Assembly (NCBI GenBank): GCA_027491435.1
Contig: JAOZFG010000006.1
Location: 1 to 38,870 of the forward strand
Direction: 5' to 3'
DNA: 38,870 nucleotides
Source of the DNA: Thermoproteota archaeon
GTDB lineage: Archaea; Korarchaeota; Korarchaeia; Korarchaeales; Korarchaeaceae
The translations under genes were made by a program, and so were the position numbers. The notes beneath the pieces are model-generated. The model was not told where the DNA came from. It did no database searches and saw nothing but the letters and a program-made list of their open reading frames with translations. Positions 9,892 to 24,956 of the stretch are shown one piece after another; the stretch's first letter is position 1; each line of letters starts with the position of its first letter.

Positions 9892-12800
9892 ATGAATTAT
9901 CGAAAGGGCCTTTCTTTCACCTTACTAGTGGCGCTCTTAATAGCGATAAGGCTTATAGCGGTAACTGCTGAACCTATGAAGAAACCAAGCATCAAGATGC
10001 TTAAGGGAACCAAGGATTTTGAAGGCAAGCCAGTGGGGCCGCTGGACTTCACAATAAACGTAGTTGATAAGAAGTTTGAGCCACCGTCTTCCTTCGACCT
10101 CTCACAATTTCCTAAATCTGGACCGTACGTTAAGGCTATAGTTCAGTTCAAGGGACCCATACAGGAGCAATGGATTAAAGAAATAAGCAGTATGAACGTA
10201 AAGATAGAGAGTTACATACCTAACTTCGCCCTGCTGTTAAGCGTGCCCAGCGACAAGCTCGAGGCCTTAGCCAACAAGCCTTACGTTAGGTGGATGGGTC
10301 CCTACACCGAGGAGTACAAGGAGGGACCCCTGGTCAAGAAGATGTCGTTGCAGGCCGGGAAGCCAGTGACCCTTCTGGTCAAGGGATTCTCGACGTCTGA
10401 CGTCGAATCATTGAAGGCTGAAATAGAGGCTAAGGGTGGGAAAGTCATAAGGACTCTGCCCTTCAACGTTCTAATGGTAAGCATAGACGGGGGCAAGGTT
10501 CCAGAGCTCAAGGGAATTGAGTCGGTGATGGTATTCGACGTGATGAAGACAAAGACTTACTATGGTCCTCCTAAGGAGCTTAGAGGGAGGTTCTACGATC
10601 TGAATTTAACTAGGAACGAGGCTCCTAAGCCTAACAGCTACTTCGCCAACATGTTAACGGGGGTGCACTTCTTCACCTTGCTGACCGGCCTGAACGGGGC
10701 AGGTGAGGTAATAGCTATAGGGGACACTGGGCTTGACACGGGGGACGCCTTAGGAGTTGATGACGACGGCGATGGGTTGGTGGATGAGGACGGACCTGAC
10801 GGCACCTGGGTTAACAACGACGGTGACTACTTCATCAATGAGGATCCTCAGGACGACGATGGGGATGGGTTGGTGGATGAGGATCCCGTGAACGGGGTGG
10901 ACGATGATGGGGACTTCTACGTGGATGAAGACCCTGCACAAGGCGTAGATGAAGATAGTGATGGGTTGGTGGATGAGGATCCAATAAATGGTGCTGATGA
11001 TGACGGCGATGGGTTGGTGGATGAGGATCCTGCTGGCATTGACAACGACTGGGATGGGTTGGTGGATGAGGATCCCGTTGAGCTTGGCGTGGACAATGAC
11101 GGCGATGGGTTGGTGGATGAGGATCCTGCTGGCATTGACAACGACGGTGACGGGCTTGTAAATGAGGATCCTTACGACGACGATGGAGATGGAAGGTTAA
11201 ACGAAGATCCAATGAATTATGGAGACAACGATGGTGACGGAAATACTGATGAGGATGGCATGTCTGACGACGCCTCATGTGGTCTGCCAGATCTTGATGG
11301 GGACAGGTTCTGGTGGTACGACAACGACGACGGTGATTTCTTCATCGATGAAGATGGAATAACTCCGGGAGTTGACGGCTATCCTGGCGTTGATGATGAC
11401 GGCGATGGGTTGGTGGATGAGGATCCTGCTGGTTGTGACAACGACGGTGATGGATTAGTTAATGAAGATCCTGCTCCTGGCGAAGACGATGACGGTGATG
11501 GGATCGCAGATGAGGATCCGATACCTTACTTCGACGAGGATAACGATGGGTTGGTGGATGAGGATCCAATAAATGGTGCTGATGATGACGGCGATGGGTT
11601 GGTGGATGAGGATCCTAAAGGAATTGACAACGACGGTGATGGGTTGGTGGATGAGGACACCGAAATATGGCCTGATTTCGTGGGCAAGATAGTAGCTGCT
11701 TATGACGCCACTGAGCTATATTCCAGCGACGGAGCCTTTGAGGACTTCCATTACCACGGAACTCACGTGGCTGGCACAGCTGCAGGTTATGGGCTAAGCT
11801 CCCTAGGCAAGTATGGGGGGGCTGGAGCTAAAGCTTTCTTCCCGCCAGTTACCGGAGCTGCTCAAGGGGCTAAAATAGCGGTAGTCAGGTTATTCGGCGA
11901 CTTAACCAGGTGGGAAGTCAATTACTTGTACACTGATGAGTGGTCCGCCTTTGCCAGGGTTATGAGGGCCAGTGGAGCTAAGATATTATCTAATTCATGG
12001 GGATACCCAGCTGCTGGAGAGTACAGTCTATACGAGGCCTTATGGGATGCCTTCGTAAAGGGCGGAACTGACTGGGACGGTGACTCACTGCCTGAGCCCT
12101 CAGTCACGGTGGTGTTCGCGGCCGGCAATGAGGGACCTGGTCCAACCACCATAGGAGGGCCTGCAACTGCTAAGAACGTCATAACAGTTGGGTCCACCAG
12201 AAACGTATGGTTTGGCTTAGATCCAACTACGGTATCTGATTTCAGCTCGAGAGGGCCAACGGCTGACGGTAGAATAAAGCCCGACGTGTGCGCTCCCGGT
12301 GAATACGTGATGAACGACTTTACCGGCATGTACTACTATGGTTGGTACCTTCCCGAGCCCATTCAGAGATATCATATCTGGCTAGCTGGAACGAGCATGG
12401 CCACTCCTCAGGTAGCTGGGATCGCAGCGATTGTAAGGCAGGCCTTCAAGCTCCTCTATGGGGTAGACTTGCAACCTCCAACCGTGAAGGCCATACTGGT
12501 TGCCTCAAGCGATTGGATGGGACGTGATCCCACAGCGGACTCTGACGGAAATGGCGTGCCTGACATTTACGACTACGGCTTCGGCAAGGTTGACATGATA
12601 TACTTCCTCAACTACTTAGCGAGCATAAATAGTGGCTTGGCAGTCTGCGATGAGTGCCTCGAACTTTCTACAAACTGGACCGCCAACTTTGAAATAACTG
12701 TAGAGGACTCAAGCATGCCCTTAAGGGTAGCTATAGCCTGGAACGATCCGCCTCAGTGGGTTCCCAGCGAGAAGGCCTTGGTAAACGACTTCGACCTTAT

Positions 12801-13143
12801 AGTCATAGCCCCTGACGGCACTGAATACCACGGCAATGACTTCACCGCCCCCTACAACGACTACACAGATCACGTGAACAACGTGGAGCTCGTTCACATA
12901 AATAACCCGACTCCTGGGACCTACAAGATAAAGGTGTTCGCCTACAACATGGTCGGAGATCCTCCGTTCTCATTGTCAGTGGCCGGAAGCATCTCAGGAA
13001 CTAACATAGGGGTTGGAAACTTCATAGGCCTGCCCAACGTGTATGTGGGTGGGGTGGCCGAAGTGGACACCGCTACAATAGTTGCAGTGATACTGCTGCT
13101 TCTCATGGCTGCTGTGGCCATTTACTTAGTGAGAAAGTCTTAA
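9892..13143 (+). CDS. Secreted, C-terminally anchored S8 subtilase (KP-43-like) with a large Asp-rich repeat insert
   Basis: Signal peptide and propeptide; catalytic D278 (IGDTG), H622 (HGTHVAG) and S835 (GTSMATP); AAGNEG oxyanion motif; KP-43-like C-domain (IAWNDPP...LVNDFDL...NNVE); C-terminal TM helix plus RKS. Confidence 0.92.
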   Translation: MNYRKGLSFTLLVALLIAIRLIAVTAEPMKKPSIKMLKGTKDFEGKPVGPLDFTINVVDKKFEPPSSFDLSQFPKSGPYVKAIVQFKGPIQEQWIKEISSMNVKIESYIPNFALLLSVPSDKLEALANKPYVRWMGPYTEEYKEGPLVKKMSLQAGKPVTLLVKGFSTSDVESLKAEIEAKGGKVIRTLPFNVLMVSIDGGKVPELKGIESVMVFDVMKTKTYYGPPKELRGRFYDLNLTRNEAPKPNSYFANMLTGVHFFTLLTGLNGAGEVIAIGDTGLDTGDALGVDDDGDGLVDEDGPDGTWVNNDGDYFINEDPQDDDGDGLVDEDPVNGVDDDGDFYVDEDPAQGVDEDSDGLVDEDPINGADDDGDGLVDEDPAGIDNDWDGLVDEDPVELGVDNDGDGLVDEDPAGIDNDGDGLVNEDPYDDDGDGRLNEDPMNYGDNDGDGNTDEDGMSDDASCGLPDLDGDRFWWYDNDDGDFFIDEDGITPGVDGYPGVDDDGDGLVDEDPAGCDNDGDGLVNEDPAPGEDDDGDGIADEDPIPYFDEDNDGLVDEDPINGADDDGDGLVDEDPKGIDNDGDGLVDEDTEIWPDFVGKIVAAYDATELYSSDGAFEDFHYHGTHVAGTAAGYGLSSLGKYGGAGAKAFFPPVTGAAQGAKIAVVRLFGDLTRWEVNYLYTDEWSAFARVMRASGAKILSNSWGYPAAGEYSLYEALWDAFVKGGTDWDGDSLPEPSVTVVFAAGNEGPGPTTIGGPATAKNVITVGSTRNVWFGLDPTTVSDFSSRGPTADGRIKPDVCAPGEYVMNDFTGMYYYGWYLPEPIQRYHIWLAGTSMATPQVAGIAAIVRQAFKLLYGVDLQPPTVKAILVASSDWMGRDPTADSDGNGVPDIYDYGFGKVDMIYFLNYLASINSGLAVCDECLELSTNWTANFEITVEDSSMPLRVAIAWNDPPQWVPSEKALVNDFDLIVIAPDGTEYHGNDFTAPYNDYTDHVNNVELVHINNPTPGTYKIKVFAYNMVGDPPFSLSVAGSISGTNIGVGNFIGLPNVYVGGVAEVDTATIVAVILLLLMAAVAIYLVRKS
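10759..11658 (+). repeat. In-frame acidic tandem repeats (about 18 x DxDGDGLVDEDP), including ten identical GATGGGTTGGTGGATGAGGA 20-mers
   Basis: Identical 20-mers at 10771, 10864, 10960, 11008, 11053, 11104, 11404, 11545, 11593 and 11638; all spacings are multiples of 3. Confidence 0.95.
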
Positions 13144-13149
13144 CTCTTC

Positions 13150-14130
13150 CTACTTTTTTAATATGTAGTACTTTGTTGGAATAAACCTAAACGTAGTTTC
13201 AGGTTTTTCCTTAAGCAGCACTTCTACGATCCTCCCTAGGGCGTTCGCCTTGATCCTGTAGCCCGCCTTGTCACGGGCCATCACCTTAACCCTAGCTTCT
13301 ATACCTTCTTCGGAAAGTTCAACGTTTTCTGGGAAGAAAGCTATCTTCAACCCCCTAAGATCCTTAGGAAAGCCTCCTCTCTCTGGAATCGAGAGAACGT
13401 TGGCCCCCAGAAATAAGGCCACCTCCTCATACCTTGGGTCCGATAGGACCTCCTCTACAGGGCCCTCCCTCACAACCCTACCTTCCATCATAAGGACAAG
13501 TTTTTCCGCCAAGGTTAGGGCCTCATGATGATCGTGTGTCACGTAGATCACGGTAAACTTGTTCTCGCTGAAGAGCTCCCTCATTTCCCATAATAGCTCC
13601 TCCCTGAGCATGTAATCTAGTGAACCGAAAGGCTCATCCATTAGGAGTACCTCTGGTCCCGGCGCCAGGGCCCTGGCTATGGCTACTCTCTGCCTTTGAC
13701 CTCCGCTAAGCTGATGTGGGTACCTGTCATCTAGCCCTTCCAGCTTGAGCATCCTCAAGTATTCTCGGGCTATAAGCTTAGCTTCGGAGAAGCTTTTTCC
13801 CCTAACTTCTAACCCGAAAGTCACGTTTCTCAGCACCGTTAAGTGGGGGAATAGGGCTAGGTCTTGAAACACGAAGCCTACATTCCTTTTGGCCGGTGGC
13901 AAGCTTAATACAGAACTTCCATCGAATAGAACGTCTCCCTCATCGGGAAACTCCAGTCCAGCTATCACTCTTAGTGTGGTGGTTTTACCGCAGCCGCTAG
14001 GCCCTAGGAGGGCGGTAATGCCTGTGTGAGCTGTAAAGCTAACACCCTTTAAGACCTGTTGTCTCCCGAACCTCTTGTGAACCCCTTTCACTTGGACTTC
14101 AACCACTTCATCCTCGCCTCCACAGCCCAC
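13150..14130 (-). CDS. thiQ: Thiamine ABC transporter ATP-binding protein
   Basis: GPSGCGKT, LSGGQRQR and LLMDEP motifs; last gene of the TPP-riboswitch operon. The true start is probably slightly downstream. Confidence 0.85.
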   Translation of the reverse strand: MGCGGEDEVVEVQVKGVHKRFGRQQVLKGVSFTAHTGITALLGPSGCGKTTTLRVIAGLEFPDEGDVLFDGSSVLSLPPAKRNVGFVFQDLALFPHLTVLRNVTFGLEVRGKSFSEAKLIAREYLRMLKLEGLDDRYPHQLSGGQRQRVAIARALAPGPEVLLMDEPFGSLDYMLREELLWEMRELFSENKFTVIYVTHDHHEALTLAEKLVLMMEGRVVREGPVEEVLSDPRYEEVALFLGANVLSIPERGGFPKDLRGLKIAFFPENVELSEEGIEARVKVMARDKAGYRIKANALGRIVEVLLKEKPETTFRFIPTKYYILKK

Positions 14131-15623
14131 TTCAGGCCCAAGTAGAGGGAAGTCAGGAACACAACCAATACGGACATTATAGAGGCCATCTGAAACCTCC
14201 TGGCCCCAGCGTACTTCAAAGTGGCTACTGTCAGCGTTTGTGTCTCTGTTGAAGCTAGGAAGTAGCTGGCCGTGGTCTCCGAGGTGGCCAACGCCAGTGA
14301 GTAGAAGAGCCCTACCATAAGTGCTGGCCTAGCTACGGCCAGGCCTACCTTAATTAGGGCGTCATGCCTAGACATTCCAAGGGTTTCGGCCGCCTCGATT
14401 ACCTCCGGGGAGAGCCCAGATATTCCGGCGTTGATGGCCCTCAAGGTGAAGGGCAATGCTATGAATACGTAGGTCAAGATCATGAGGATCCACCTGGGCA
14501 TCGACCTGGATAGCATGAAGAGACCTAGAGCCAGAGTTATGGAGGAGGTTCCCAAGGGAAGGGATGTTGTAGCTAGGATAGCTTTTCTCATCCTGGATGA
14601 GAGCGCGAACAGCGTGCTCAGCAGAAACACCATCAGGGTGGACTCAGTGGAGAGCACTATCGTGTTGACCAGAGGGACCAGGGGGTGGGTTCCGAGGGTG
14701 GGATCGTAGCTGAGGAGCTTGGCCCACTCACCCAAGTTCAAGGAGCCGGACATAGGATCGTAAAGAGACCTAATTAAAAGGTAGGAGAGGGGCAGTAAAG
14801 AGAAGGTGGCCGTGAGCCAAGGGTACACTGAGGCCAGCATCGACTTCTTCCTCCTCCTGACCTCTAAGGTGCTGACCTCCCTCTCCCTCATGAAGAGTAC
14901 GAGGGACATGGTCACGAGCAATTGTAGAATTGCCACGGCTGACGCCTTGTTAGGGTTCATGAGCACCTTGTAGAGGGAGTATATCTCCACCTCCAAGGTC
15001 CTGTATCTGGGGCCACCGAGTAACAGGGGTATGGCAAAGCTGGTGAAGCTTAGGGCAAACGTCAGGAGGAACCCGTAAGCGATCCCCTTGATAGCTAGTG
15101 GTGCTATCAGCCTTCTGAACCTATCAAACCAGTCAGCCCCTAGTACCTCGGCTGCCTCCTCTAGCCTCTCACTAACCGTGGACAGGGAAGATGATACCAT
15201 CTGAGCTACCATCCCAAAGTTGAAGTAAGCGTGGGCCAGGACTATTGGGATCCAACCTCTAGGCATGAGGCCAGCGTTAACCAGAAGTAAGAATGCCAGA
15301 GCTACCGTGGATGAGGGGAGTGTGAAGGGTAAGGTGGTGAAGGCTTCTACCAGCTTTCGGCCGGGGTAATCGTAAGTGGAGTTCACGTATCCCAGAGGAG
15401 TGGCTATCATCACGGTTATAAGGCCGCTCAACAGGGCTTGCCACACAGAGAAGCGGAGGGACCTAATCACAGCTGGGTCCAGGATTTCTCCTAAATGAGG
15501 CAACCCTTCCACGAGTATCCTACCTGAGGACAACGCCCAAAAAAGTAGGATGAAGGTGAGCACGGATAGACCAGCGATTAATTCCAGAAATCCTGCCCTC
15601 AAGACCCTACTACCTTCCTCCAC
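14088..15623 (-). CDS. thiP: Thiamine ABC transporter permease (two fused TM modules)
   Basis: Multiple TM helices, two EAA loops (EEAAEVLGA, IEAAETLGM) and the ThiP-like LAHAYFN and TLEVEIY motifs. Confidence 0.87.
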   Translation of the reverse strand: MEEGSRVLRAGFLELIAGLSVLTFILLFWALSSGRILVEGLPHLGEILDPAVIRSLRFSVWQALLSGLITVMIATPLGYVNSTYDYPGRKLVEAFTTLPFTLPSSTVALAFLLLVNAGLMPRGWIPIVLAHAYFNFGMVAQMVSSSLSTVSERLEEAAEVLGADWFDRFRRLIAPLAIKGIAYGFLLTFALSFTSFAIPLLLGGPRYRTLEVEIYSLYKVLMNPNKASAVAILQLLVTMSLVLFMREREVSTLEVRRRKKSMLASVYPWLTATFSLLPLSYLLIRSLYDPMSGSLNLGEWAKLLSYDPTLGTHPLVPLVNTIVLSTESTLMVFLLSTLFALSSRMRKAILATTSLPLGTSSITLALGLFMLSRSMPRWILMILTYVFIALPFTLRAINAGISGLSPEVIEAAETLGMSRHDALIKVGLAVARPALMVGLFYSLALATSETTASYFLASTETQTLTVATLKYAGARRFQMASIMSVLVVFLTSLYLGLKWAVEARMKWLKSK

Positions 15624-16702
15624 TCCTCCAACCAGCTCTTAAGTTCTTTACCGATTTCCTCTGTGGAGATGATCTTATTCATTAGCTCCACCTTCAGCGG
15701 ATCTATTGCGTACTTCTTGAACTCATTGGGCAGTTCCACCTTGGAGCTGGCAGGATACATCCAGTTGTTCAAGGGGATGAGCGACTGCACCCTCGGCGAG
15801 AGGAAGTAATCTATGAACTTCTTAGCCAGCTCCGGGTGCTTAGATCCCTTTACAAGCCCTATGCCTTCTATCTGCAGCCACCCGTAGCTCTTCCCCTTAT
15901 ACTTTATCAGGGTGGCCCTGTACCTGGTCTCGTTGTAAAAGTGATAAGAGTAGGCTCCATCGGTTCCGTAACTGATCACTATAGGCCTGCCCTGCTTCTC
16001 GTCCAGGAAGACGTCATAGGCGTCTCCCCAGCTACCGACTATCATTAACCCGTTGTCAACTGCCTCTTTCCACCACTGCCTCCAGTCGCCCCCGACCATC
16101 TTATAGTAAGCTATTTCCCATAGCAGGAAGCTGAGTCCCGTGCTACTTAGAGTTGGATCCTCGGCGACCAGCTTGGAGGCGAGCTCTGGTGATTTGAGAT
16201 CGTCAAAGGACAGGGATTCTACTAGATCCGGCGAAATTCTCTTGGAGTCGTACACCAGAGCTATTAACCCGTAGTCGTAAGGAACCACGTGAAGCGATGG
16301 ATCCAAAGACTTTACAAGCCAATCGTACACGTCGTCCAAGTTTGCTGGCCTATAAGGCTCTAAGACCCCTGCCTGTATAGCTTCATGCACGAGCACGTTG
16401 TCAATCCCTATTATCACGTCAGCCTGAGGATCGTCCTTCTCTTCGATCAAAGCTAAAAGCGCCGACCTGGCATCGTCAAATTCTCTAACCTCCACCTTAC
16501 AGTTGTATTTCTCTTCGAAATAACCAAAGACTGCCTGTCTAGTGGCGTTGGGGTCATCTCCCCATTTTAGGAGGCTCTCGTATGTGTATATGACCAGCCT
16601 GTCCTCTCCCTTGCTTCCTCCCAAGTAAAGCCAGTAAGCAACTCCTATGGCAAGTATCACCAGTAAGAGAGCCAGGATCACCTTAGACGTGCTCCAGCTC
16701 AC
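15599..16702 (-). CDS. thiB: Thiamine ABC transporter substrate-binding protein
   Basis: N-terminal membrane anchor; IYTYES, ADVIIGIDN, PYDYG, DPTLSSTG, QIEG and NNWMYP (TbpA-like). I prefer GTG at 16702 as start over 16726 because a GGGAGG SD lies about 10 nt upstream. Confidence 0.9.
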   Translation of the reverse strand: MSWSTSKVILALLLVILAIGVAYWLYLGGSKGEDRLVIYTYESLLKWGDDPNATRQAVFGYFEEKYNCKVEVREFDDARSALLALIEEKDDPQADVIIGIDNVLVHEAIQAGVLEPYRPANLDDVYDWLVKSLDPSLHVVPYDYGLIALVYDSKRISPDLVESLSFDDLKSPELASKLVAEDPTLSSTGLSFLLWEIAYYKMVGGDWRQWWKEAVDNGLMIVGSWGDAYDVFLDEKQGRPIVISYGTDGAYSYHFYNETRYRATLIKYKGKSYGWLQIEGIGLVKGSKHPELAKKFIDYFLSPRVQSLIPLNNWMYPASSKVELPNEFKKYAIDPLKVELMNKIISTEEIGKELKSWLEEWRKVVGS

Positions 16703-16759
16703 TCCCCCCAACCCTCCCGCAGACACCGGGGGGAGTTGGGATCGGCATAAGGAGCTGCC

Positions 16760-16864
16760 GCGGGCACGCTCCCTACGCCGGCATTACCCGGATCAGGTTC
16801 GAGGGGTCGGCGGCAGACTAGCCGCCCTCTCAGCCGGGTTCACCCCAGCTCCCCCGGTGCCCGC
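16760..16864 (-). ncRNA. TPP riboswitch (THI box) aptamer
   Basis: Minus strand reads GCGGGCAC-CGGGGGAGC...GCTGAGAGGGCGGC...GCCGCCGACCCCTCGAACCTGATCCGGGTAATGCCGGCGTAGGGAGC-GTGCCCGC. It has the conserved CUGAGA and ACCUGAU/UAAUGC/GCGUAGGGA cores, a perfect 8-bp P1, and lies directly upstream of a thiamine transporter. Confidence 0.95.
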
Positions 16865-16884
16865 CACTAAAGTGGGAAGTAAAG

Positions 16885-23009: not shown

Positions 23010-24956
23010 TTAATGCCTCCTACCGGCTAAGTATCCTAAAGCCAATCCCACCAACAACGGGAGGAAGGCCCCCATGACATAATTGATTAACTTCTCAGGG
23101 GCTCTTTTGGTCAACACTTTAGTTACAGTTTCCGTTTTAGTCTGGGTTTCGGTTATCGTGGTTGGCGAGCTCCTAGTAACCGTTTTTCCGCTGGCTTTCT
23201 CAGGTTGTTTATACTTGGTTATAGAGAGCATAATTAGCATCTGTGAGTGCGCTGAAGACATCTCGTAATAGGTTATAGCTCCGAAGACATCTTTTTGAAG
23301 CTCTAACTCAGATGCCGTCTCGTAGTAACTCAAAGCTAAGACGGGGACTACTCCCTTATTCAACAACTTCTTTATGGATGATGAGGCGACTCCCTTCACG
23401 GCATTTAGAGCCGCTAACGGGTCGCTGGTGAACAGTTGATGAATTGTAGTGGTCGCCTTAGCTAGGGACATGGCGGCCAACCCTATGGCCCCATAAGAGT
23501 CTCCTGAAGAGAGAGCTGAGTTAGCCATGTCCAAGTCAGCGTTTACGTCTGATAGAACGGATGAAGAAGATACCTCTGTGGCCAAGCTTAGGGCGTAGGA
23601 TATGACCCCCTCTGCCTCGTATATCATGGTGGATGCCACTTTTCTTAACCTATTCTGATCTACCTTGCCTTCCTTAGAGACGTTAAGTAGCCAAAGCCAG
23701 GTTTTGGCTGTTTCTGCCCTCCATATTGTGTAGGACAGTGTGTGTATAGCCCCCCAGCTGTCATAACCGTCCAACAGGTCTCCTCTAGATATCATTTCAG
23801 CTCCCTGCTTTAACGAGTTTCTGGCCGTGTAATACCTGACCTTAGCGGCCACTAGGGCCTCTAAACCGGATAATGAATCTGGTTTTGTCGAGTTAACTAG
23901 CTTGCCGACAGACTCTACTACAGAGGAAGCCTTGTCAGCTAGTTCCTCTACAGCCTTGTTGCCCTTTCTGACGTACATGGTAAGCCAGTAGGCGTATTCG
24001 GCTTCGTAAGCGGACTGGAACGCGAGGCTGGAAGCCGTGTACAGATTTCCTTCCTTCCTCTGATCACGCGCTTGCATGGCCAGGCTTTCTGAGTCTTTTA
24101 GGACTGATTTTATAGCCCTAGCCGATATTGGATCCACTCCCTTAGAGCTCAGAAGCTCCTCAACTTTAACTCTTAGATGGAATGACGCGTTGAGGTAATG
24201 TTCAACCCAGCCCTCTAGCAGGTCCCTTATGGATTCGGGAAACTCGAAGTTGGTGACAGTTGGTTTTGGGAACTCAACTCCTAAGAAGTACTTGGCGGCC
24301 TCGGCTATGGTCGATACTTCCTTCACCTCAACGCCCAAGCTCCTCCCCAGCTCTATCAGGTCGACAGTTTTTGTCTCCACAGTAGTTATCACCAGGGGCC
24401 CTATCTTCTTCCTTTTGGGGATTGTCTCCACAACCTTCCTCTGACCCGCAGGTATCAGGAATATTTTGGCACCTCCTTCGGCCGCGGCCTTCAGCTTCTC
24501 TGGTATGCCTCCCACGGGACCTACTGTTCCATCTGGATTCACCATGCCGGTCATTATTACGTCTTTCCTCATCTGCTTACCCAAGATCGCCGCTATCGTG
24601 GCTACTGTCATGACGGCTCCAGCGCTAGGCCCTCCTATTATCATGCTGTCGGATTCCAAGCTGTAGTAGAAGTTGTACGACATGGGGTCCACTCCCAGCA
24701 GGTTGCAGGCTACCAGAGCAGCTGTCCTGGCAGCCCCCTGGGTATCCAGCTGTGTCAGAGGGTCTGCCGAGAAATACACCTTACCAGTACCAGAAGTCAC
24801 TTCCACCGTCAAATTGCTAAGAGAACCCTTCATTACTCCCTCAGGCGTCTGATAAACTGCTGGAACTTTTGCTATAACGGCTGGAGAGCCGGAAACTTGA
24901 ATAGATGGTAGAACGAGCATCGCCAATAGGAGAGCTAGAGTTCTCGACGACATCAC
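23010..24956 (-). CDS. Secreted, membrane-anchored S16 Lon-like serine protease (no ATPase domain)
   Basis: Signal peptide; Ser-Lys dyad (GGPSAG, VGGIPEK); TGMVNPDG; helical C-domain, Thr-rich linker, TM helix and RRH. Confidence 0.88.
   Translation of the reverse strand: MMSSRTLALLLAMLVLPSIQVSGSPAVIAKVPAVYQTPEGVMKGSLSNLTVEVTSGTGKVYFSADPLTQLDTQGAARTAALVACNLLGVDPMSYNFYYSLESDSMIIGGPSAGAVMTVATIAAILGKQMRKDVIMTGMVNPDGTVGPVGGIPEKLKAAAEGGAKIFLIPAGQRKVVETIPKRKKIGPLVITTVETKTVDLIELGRSLGVEVKEVSTIAEAAKYFLGVEFPKPTVTNFEFPESIRDLLEGWVEHYLNASFHLRVKVEELLSSKGVDPISARAIKSVLKDSESLAMQARDQRKEGNLYTASSLAFQSAYEAEYAYWLTMYVRKGNKAVEELADKASSVVESVGKLVNSTKPDSLSGLEALVAAKVRYYTARNSLKQGAEMISRGDLLDGYDSWGAIHTLSYTIWRAETAKTWLWLLNVSKEGKVDQNRLRKVASTMIYEAEGVISYALSLATEVSSSSVLSDVNADLDMANSALSSGDSYGAIGLAAMSLAKATTTIHQLFTSDPLAALNAVKGVASSSIKKLLNKGVVPVLALSYYETASELELQKDVFGAITYYEMSSAHSQMLIMLSITKYKQPEKASGKTVTRSSPTTITETQTKTETVTKVLTKRAPEKLINYVMGAFLPLLVGLALGYLAGRRH

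Follow-up and report, generated by a model that had tools for sequence, protein, structure and literature searches.

An archaeal membrane-anchored subtilase with a long acidic repeat array, a candidate Ca2+-binding module, between its catalytic Asp and His

Results

Domain organisation of the protease

The stretch of DNA analysed here, referred to throughout as the window, comprises 38,870 nucleotides of a Thermoproteota archaeon placed in the Korarchaeaceae (assembly GCA_027491435.1, contig JAOZFG010000006.1, positions 1 to 38,870 of the forward strand). Positions 9892..13143 hold an open reading frame (ORF) with no internal stops, which encodes a subtilisin-like protease (subtilase) whose catalytic Asp and His are separated by a long array of acidic repeats. 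This feature had been picked out in an earlier sequence-only reading of the window, and the coordinates and residue numbers given there (the ORF, D278, H622, and an Asp-His distance of 344 residues) are exact. The parts of the gene, delimited with the aid of an AlphaFold2 (AF2) model and an alignment to the subtilase KP-43, are as follows.

9892..13143, forward strand: S8 pre-pro-subtilase gene, 1083 aa, stop codon TAA at 13141-13143
9892..9972, forward strand: signal-peptide-like N-terminal hydrophobic helix, residues 1-27 (AF2 helix 2-26; putative signal role)
10126..10542, forward strand: two tandem beta-alpha-beta-beta-alpha-beta units, residues 79-217 (AF2)
10687..10743, forward strand: catalytic domain, first piece, residues 266-284, with the Asp278 codon at 10723-10725, in IGDTGLDTG
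10744..11658, forward strand: acidic insert, residues 285-589, 305 aa (KP-43 alignment, repeats, and charge)
11659..12606, forward strand: catalytic domain, remainder, residues 590-905, with codons for His622 at 11755-11757, the oxyanion Asn746 at 12127-12129, and Ser835 at 12394-12396
12634..12984, forward strand: C-terminal beta-sandwich (jelly-roll, PPC-like), residues 915-1031 (AF2 and KP-43 alignment)
13069..13137, forward strand: C-terminal transmembrane helix, residues 1060-1082, then R-K-S (AF2; read as a membrane anchor)

Assignment to family S8 is given both by a profile match and by an ordered Asp-His-Ser triad with its oxyanion Asn. The Pfam model PF00082 matches residues 616-892 with an E-value of 6.1e-41 (141 bits against a cut-off of 21.8), covering only profile positions 50-284 because the insert separates the Asp region from the remainder of the domain. 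The catalytic motifs read IGDTG (D278), HGTHVAG (H622), AAGNEG (N746), and GTSMATP (S835), with all four residues invariant in 4/4 fully aligned family members. The best matches in a HMMER sequence search of the PDB are SubHal (5fax, E 1.4e-57) and KP-43 (1wmd, E 3.4e-57), and Foldseek comparison of the AF2 model also returns KP-43 (E 2.6e-33, TM-score (TMt) 0.79) and SubHal (TMt 0.78), together with ProN-Tk-SP. The protease therefore falls, with its top PDB relatives by sequence and by fold and an alignment that continues through residues 906-1030, into the KP-43-type group, named the "oxidatively stable protease" subgroup of the pyrolysin-type subtilases (PMC9549277). KP-43 and SubHal share the catalytic domain and the C-terminal beta-sandwich of the protein at ~34% identity, with DTGLDTG identical. 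In contrast to the protease described here, however, these are secreted alkaline proteases of Bacillus that carry neither a repeat insert nor a C-terminal membrane anchor.

The boundaries of the insert follow from the same alignment. Residues 266-284 align with KP-43 residues 18-36, including the identical DTGLDTG, and the alignment resumes at residue 590 opposite KP-43 residue 40, placing the 305 residues from 285 to 589 right behind DTGLDTG where KP-43 has ~3 residues. The Asp-His gap of 344 residues described in the sequence-only reading therefore stands, with the small correction that only residues 285-589 are foreign, residues 590-621 being an ordinary Asp-to-His segment. A catalytic Asp downstream of the insert is ruled out: there are zero D[ST]G motifs between residues 590 and 622, hence the catalytic Asp is D278, before the insert. 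In the AF2 model D278 lies inside the fold on a strand formed by residues 273-278 (block pLDDT (predicted local distance difference test) 91), so that the proposed arrangement of a catalytic Asp upstream and a catalytic His downstream of the repeats is borne out by the residue itself, by the KP-43 alignment, and by the predicted strand.

Outside the insert, AF2 is confident for residues 79-217, the catalytic domain, the beta-sandwich of residues 915-1031, and the helix of residues 1060-1082. Residues 79-217 give long Foldseek alignments to ProN-Tk-SP (3afg) and fervidolysin (1r6v) and no Pfam match in the local library, and are inferred from their fold pattern to be a propeptide of the I9-like type. 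The label PF26036 is carried by P0001, P0002, and P0003 among the sequences compared and is absent from the N-terminally truncated P0004, and may denote an N-terminal domain. The beta-sandwich is accompanied by a weak Pfam match of the PPC type at residues 959-1016. The N-terminal signal-like helix and the C-terminal transmembrane helix, both seen in the AF2 model, agree with the earlier suggestion of a cell-anchored enzyme, and sequence and model together are best explained by an intact S8 subtilase of the KP-43 ("oxidatively stable protease") branch that is secreted and held in the membrane by its C-terminus.

The C-terminal tail has a further feature, in that an invariant V-G-G stands just before the transmembrane helix in 4/4 aligned members, followed by the basic tail (window 13021-13140, forward strand), and this combination of V-G-G, helix, and basic tail looks like a sorting signal. 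A profile search found no PGF-CTERM match on the protease tail, and the 99.5%-complete genome yielded no member of the archaeosortase family PF09721; the protease is thus not assigned to the proteins with an archaeosortase-processed sorting signal.

The AF2 models were both metal-free, with 36 sequences in the alignment for the full-length protein and 14 for the insert alone. In the full-length model residues 284-590 have a pLDDT below 50 throughout (25-42 per 10-residue block) and no secondary structure, and the insert modelled alone has a mean pLDDT of 51, a predicted TM-score (pTM) of 0.17, and again no secondary structure. The full-length model is consistent with a normal subtilisin core from which the insert is looped out, and the low confidence of the insert is compatible both with disorder and with an irregular structure organised by metal.

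The acidic repeat array

Residues 279-621 contain 107 Asp, 25 Glu, 4 Lys+Arg, and 2 Cys in 343 residues, and the insert proper (285-589) is 33% Asp with a net charge of -121. The loose pattern D.[DN].D[GF] marks 16 units, mostly 15-16 residues apart, and 2-3 degenerate units lie around residues 308, 467, and 479, making the "about 18 repeats" of the sequence-only reading a fair count. The strict form of the Dx[DN]xDG calcium-binding linear motif of Rigden and co-workers occurs 15 times in the insert, as against 2.2 +/- 1.4 (maximum 7) in 2000 composition-preserving shuffles, and an 11-residue pattern likewise occurs 15 times against a shuffle mean of 0.03. The count of 15 strict motifs, compared with 2.2 in the shuffles, shows that the repetition does not arise by chance, and the same matches substantiate the resemblance to Ca2+ loops that had been proposed.

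The array is an old tandem duplication with a partial two-unit super-repeat (a double unit of 31 residues and a period of 96 bases). Tandem Repeats Finder reports periods of 45, 48, and 96 bases in the DNA with 67-85% matches, and the double-unit super-repeat is seen in the protein alignment as well. Across 69 units from four members the consensus is x-[NAD]-G-[VI]-D-[DN]-D-G-D-G-L-[VI]-D-E-D-P, with Gly at position 6 in 66 units, Val/Ile at position 8 in 53, Asp/Asn at position 9 in 66, Glu at position 10 in 66, Asp at position 11 in 68, and Pro at position 12 in 51; no cysteines occur in the repeat units. Judged from these sequences, such conservation points to a site-specific constraint beyond mere charge. 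An antisense ORF of 147 aa overlapping the array (10835-11278, reverse strand) is almost certainly not a gene, its His/Pro/Arg-rich product being the mirror of the GAT/GAC-rich repeats.

Relatives carrying the insert

The catalytic half of the protein was searched by word index against 5.8 billion protein clusters and the 119 nearest relatives were compared. Three of these are close, with 51-57% identity over that half, namely P0002 (1087 aa), P0003 (1022 aa), and P0004 (871 aa), and all further relatives are at most 37% identical. The insert is present in all three at the same position and with the same unit order, the length differences among members being whole-unit gains or losses together with one extra piece of 12 residues. 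Comparison of insert length in homologues, which had been put forward as a check, gives Asp-His spacings of 355, 324, and 366 residues for P0002, P0003, and P0004 respectively, as against 31-41 in 111 of the other 116 relatives, the remaining 5 being without a recognisable Asp or His motif.

An exhaustive HMMER scan with the insert alone against 1.84 billion cluster representatives added P0124, a 393-aa fragment of a further member that carries the insert, and a search of 40 related genomes added one more, in a genome (G021) from a sister genus in the same family. In G021 the orthologue is interrupted within the array, its parts lying on two contigs (C27:85191-86777 and C4:2-1555), and at 82% identity to P0002 it is a distinct sequence. 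This brings the family to six distinct members, 47-82% identical to each other and all with the insert. Between members the insert is 79-81% identical and the rest of the protein 51-57%, the figure for the insert being inflated by its low complexity. With this query the 20 further congeneric genomes gave no orthologue (0/20), and the gene is thus patchy. A single-protein scan of genome contigs gave zero matches, and an alignment-based scan of contigs gave 69 loci, mostly repeat regions of unrelated genes and a few catalytic regions, because its patterns were derived from the repeats. As the split in G021 illustrates, the array evidently breaks short-read assemblies, and members may be under-counted in metagenomes.

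Similarity of the repeat unit to calcium-binding motifs

Despite the agreement with the Dx[DN]xDG pattern, the unit belongs to none of the curated families with which it was compared. NCBIfam models do not match the insert, phmmer found 0 PDB matches to the insert at E<=10, and the ESM Atlas returned no usable match for it. An EF-hand is not indicated, with no helices predicted in the insert, Pro at position 12 in 51 of 69 units, and no Pfam match. Neither thrombospondin type-3 (T3) repeats (PF02412) nor bacterial TSP3 repeats (PF18884) are recognised, with 0 families matched at E<=10 and 2 Cys in 343 residues, and the likeness to TSP3 exists at the motif level only, as DxDGDGLxD, the form also found at the C-terminus of the PF18884-labelled P0009. 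The MopE-type model PF11617 gives no profile match, and the Cys pair of its C.DG.DN.CDG motif is absent from the units.

A profile of the double unit matched three chains in the PDB, the best, and the only one near significance, being the C-rich domain of teneurin-4 (7plp, E 0.46), which has an identical DNDGDGLVD core, and the weaker ones being two EF loops of oncomodulin and ubiquitin with a double lanthanide-binding tag. For teneurin-4, coordination of three Ca2+ ions is described through D843, N844, D845, D847, D851, the L849 carbonyl, and additional Asp residues; two of the ions (I and II) are held as in thrombospondin type-3 repeats, and the protein gains stability from Ca2+ (PMC9058538). 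The insert units share the core of this Ca2+ I/II site and differ from T3 and teneurin in having no Cys or disulfides, a length of 15-16 residues, and a Pro three places after D9. The T3 "wire" is without regular secondary structure, and none is predicted for the array either. The teneurin C-rich region has been aligned by its authors to the Pfam family Cu-binding_MopE (PMC3278476), and only through this alignment is the insert linked to MopE. Cu-binding_MopE appears to be the Cys-containing DNDCDG-type motif with which the sequence-only reading had compared the repeats, a comparison that is apt at the level of the motif and reasonable as a suggestion of kinship, since the teneurin-4 match connects the two.

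The repeat in other proteins

The scan with the insert alone returned 204 cluster representatives at E<=0.001, and Pfam was run on 27 of the 148 other sequences that, with P0003 and P0004, make up the best 150 of the 204. No Pfam model falls on the repeat itself in any of the 27 (0/27). The partner domains are those of secreted or surface proteins, comprising CHU_C/FlgD_ig tails of the type IX secretion system (T9SS) in 6, BNR/sialidase-like, cadherin-like/Big_9, and PD40 domains in 2 each, and S-layer, PGF-CTERM, DUF11, N-methyl pilin-like, and S8 peptidase domains in 1 each; one of the cadherin-like carriers also has WD40 repeats, and 10/27 are without any Pfam match.

Similar units are found in surface loops of other extracellular peptidases. 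P0137, an S8 protein of 1208 aa, has 1-2 units directly after DTG, the same site as the insert here; units of the DNDGDGLVDED type also occur in pairs, both in several catalytic-domain loops and in the C-terminal region. In a giant subtilase from a metagenome-assembled genome (MAG) of the Thermoplasmatales (L010 4237-9255, forward strand), where Asp and His have a spacing of 160, 4-5 units lie between the two, behind an HPD..N.W segment and hence at a neighbouring but different site. A protein resembling M14 carboxypeptidases from a Thalassarchaeaceae MAG (L017 5419-7620, forward strand) also has acidic units in loops. All three have far fewer units than the protease described here, and their catalytic domains are not close relatives of it. 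From these sequences the unit appears to be a small module that has repeatedly been grafted into surface loops of extracellular enzymes, of which the present array, with 16-19 copies, is the extreme case. The repeat is widespread among secreted proteins and the insert restricted to a tiny clade, two points beyond the reach of the sequence-only reading.

Discussion

A candidate Ca2+-dependent folding and stability module

The array is most plausibly, with a probability of roughly 0.55, a Ca2+-binding module that becomes compact outside the cell and aids the folding and stability of the protease, a proposal drawn from sequence and from analogy with other subtilases. Its two parts are not equally secure: the units, on the strength of their motif, probably do bind Ca2+, whereas a specific role in folding and stability, argued from precedent, is put forward tentatively and at somewhat less than even odds. 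Tandem duplication has enlarged the surface loop after the Asp-bearing strand in one small clade within the KP-43 branch, and in this proposal each unit would bind one or two Ca2+ ions. In the low-Ca2+ cytoplasm the metal-free array would be an expanded polyanion, unable to fold, and after export Ca2+ would condense it into a compact, looped-out module whose ends meet, allowing the Asp strand to pack on the part of the domain that holds His and Ser, and then stabilising the enzyme at high temperature.

This proposal is the best supported because of an argument from charge and geometry and because of two published precedents, PMC3123361 and PMC12838322. A net charge of -0.4 per residue over 305 residues leads one to expect an expanded coil in the absence of counter-ions. 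Residues 284 and 590 are adjacent in the subtilisin fold, and the ends of the array must therefore meet, so that a metal-free array should oppose folding and Ca2+-driven condensation should relieve this. The lack of secondary structure in the AF2 models is what a segment that is organised by metal, or disordered, would be expected to show.

Of the precedents, Tk-subtilisin of Thermococcus kodakarensis (2z2x) has a 25-residue insertion that contains a Dx[DN]xDG motif, listed at residue 212, and binds four Ca2+ ions, and this insertion is reported to be required for folding (PMC3123361). Like the protease described here, it is a subtilase from a thermophilic archaeon with an irregular Ca2+-motif insertion inside the catalytic domain, differing in having 25 residues and one motif as against 305 residues and ~18 units. 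Residue 212 of Tk-subtilisin is presumably positioned between the catalytic His and Ser, rather than between Asp and His. No sequence relationship was found between the Tk-subtilisin insertion and the array, and the comparison is one of analogy, not homology. Additionally, published work on hyperthermostable subtilases names inserted loops and Ca2+ sites as hot spots of stabilisation (PMC12838322).

The roles of folding switch and thermostabiliser, both raised in the sequence-only reading, are favoured by analogy with Tk-subtilisin and by a proteome that resembles that of a thermophile. The fraction of residues IVYWREL is 0.453 over 824 long ORFs, for which the relation of Zeldovich and co-workers reportedly gives a growth temperature of roughly 90 C, and from its composition the proteome looks (hyper)thermophilic. 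Tripeptidyl-peptidase II, another S8 protease, has an insert of ~200 residues between Asp and His, for which the open-access papers searched gave no confirming passage; this enzyme is a eukaryotic cytosolic giant complex in which the insert is a folded domain with no acidic repeat. An acidic T3-like array at this site of a subtilase was not found described in the open-access papers and preprints searched. Ca2+-binding insertions in subtilases are already known, and an acidic array conserved in six sequences is rare, mechanistically suggestive, and within expectation for the surface proteases of thermophiles.

Several observations weigh against this proposal. The Pfam models TSP_3, TSP3_bac, EF-hand, Excalibur, and MopE find no match in the insert even at E<=10, and the three PDB chains matched by the double-unit profile are all non-significant (E 0.46 to 9.8). 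Position 12 of the unit is Pro, where canonical EF-hand and dockerin loops are closed by Glu/Asp, and the later ligands would therefore have to be E10 or D11. The AF2 models show neither a compact module nor array ends that meet through one, the models being uninformative on this point because the confidence for the insert is low. Since none of the 20 congeneric genomes searched contains the gene, close relatives can do without it. Finally, the temperature estimate is crude, coming from a rough set of ORFs.

A bolder form of the proposal, which we consider conceivable but speculative, holds that the array is a Ca2+-gated clamp in a split catalytic domain, an archaeal, Sec-exported counterpart of the outside-only folding of RTX-type proteins. 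The cytoplasmic polyanion would keep the Asp strand hundreds of coil residues from His and Ser until ~18 Cys-free T3-like sites condense cooperatively outside the cell and switch the protease on, and the unit would be an uncurated, widespread prokaryotic repeat for Ca2+ (or lanthanides) that is grafted into the loops of extracellular enzymes.

Alternative explanations

The array may instead serve mainly as a functional surface polyanion, with any effect on folding incidental, either tethering the enzyme through Ca2+ bridges to the envelope, the S-layer, minerals, or cationic polymers, or acting as bait that concentrates basic proteins at the active site. The net charge of -121 over 305 residues and the predicted membrane anchor are in keeping with such a role, as are the N-terminal repeat arrays of T9SS cargo, S-layer-family, and PGF-CTERM proteins, for which an adhesive or spacer function is plausible. 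However, a polyanion need not interrupt the catalytic domain; an array at one end of the protein would serve, as it does in those other carriers, and the strict Gly at position 6, the hydrophobic pair at positions 7-8, and Pro12 point to a defined local structure. We regard this reading as unlikely in its own right; it is compatible with Ca2+ binding and overlaps with the proposed Ca2+-binding module.

A disordered spacer that needs no metal and has no specific ligand, for example an "entropic bristle" or a tag for solubility or against aggregation, would account for the low pLDDT, the missing secondary structure, the extreme charge, and the lack of a curated family match. Such a spacer would be expected neither to conserve particular positions of the unit across six members with indels that occur unit-wise only, nor to have a core identical to the solved Ca2+ site of teneurin-4 (PMC9058538), and this explanation is accordingly judged improbable.

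It is also hard to favour an internal pro-segment, which would hold the domain open or inactive during export and later be excised to leave a mature enzyme of two non-covalently associated chains. The insert is a long low-confidence loop that starts and ends at the surface of the domain, in a protease that matures by autoprocessing, but it has no cleavage motif, and its conservation equals or exceeds that of the catalytic domain, something seldom seen in a discarded segment. Asp/Gly/Pro-rich sequence is, furthermore, a poor substrate for subtilisins, and we consider this possibility very unlikely. An assembly artefact or a decaying gene is scarcely credible, for although repeats do break assemblies, as in the orthologue of G021 split within its array, six distinct members carry the insert, the same site and unit order recur in independent assemblies from different sources, and the frame is open throughout with all catalytic residues kept.

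Implications

Insertion of Ca2+ loops is a known route by which hyperthermophile subtilases attain folding and heat resistance, and this clade takes it to an extreme, with a 33-kDa array of ~18 sites placed between two catalytic residues of one domain. Should the array condense with Ca2+, it would provide a modular, disulfide-free switch of natural origin with which Ca2+ could control a very stable protease, a means of testing what insert length the subtilisin fold tolerates at the Asp loop, and a handle on an apparently uncurated acidic repeat with 204 cluster representatives. Should it not condense, the protein would merely be a decorated KP-43-like protease.

Genomic context

The genome (G000) comprises 1.64 Mb with 51.8% G+C and is 99.5% complete; the archaeal small-subunit (SSU) model found no rRNA in it. 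It has no second copy of the repeat array. Calcium-blade/FG-GAP-like loops, with DxDGDG set in GDxDGDGxxE, occur 4-7 times each in three other proteins, encoded at the following positions.

C5:189285-191741, reverse strand: DxDGDG-loop protein
C21:9978-13016, forward strand: DxDGDG-loop protein
C29:5546-6670, reverse strand: DxDGDG-loop protein

Those on C5 and C21 end in a hydrophobic segment followed by a basic tail, suggesting that they are anchored in the manner of the protease.

Within the window the protease gene is on its own, separated by 174 bases from the CoA-transferase gene upstream and by 6 bases from an ABC ATPase gene that converges on it; neighbouring genes are of archaeal type and include a CDC48 ATPase, an archaeal family-4 uracil-DNA glycosylase (UDG), a proteasome assembly chaperone, and an ATP-dependent DNA ligase. 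At the CoA-transferase locus of four congeners the neighbours seen here are absent within 1.5 kb, and the CoA-transferase orthologue in a complete congeneric genome (G012:C1:241061-242665, L084) has one in-frame TGA. An ORF of 647 aa at 23010-24956 (reverse strand) is matched only by the C-terminal S16 domain of Lon, over residues ~73-192 (E ~1e-13), with no AAA+ module detected in it. The operon that ends 6 bases from the protease gene encodes a thiB/thiP/thiQ-like ABC transporter (ORFs 15599-16726, 14088-15623, and 13150-14130, all on the reverse strand), and upstream of it lies a thiamine pyrophosphate (TPP) riboswitch (RF00059, 66.4 bits, window 16752-16865, reverse strand).

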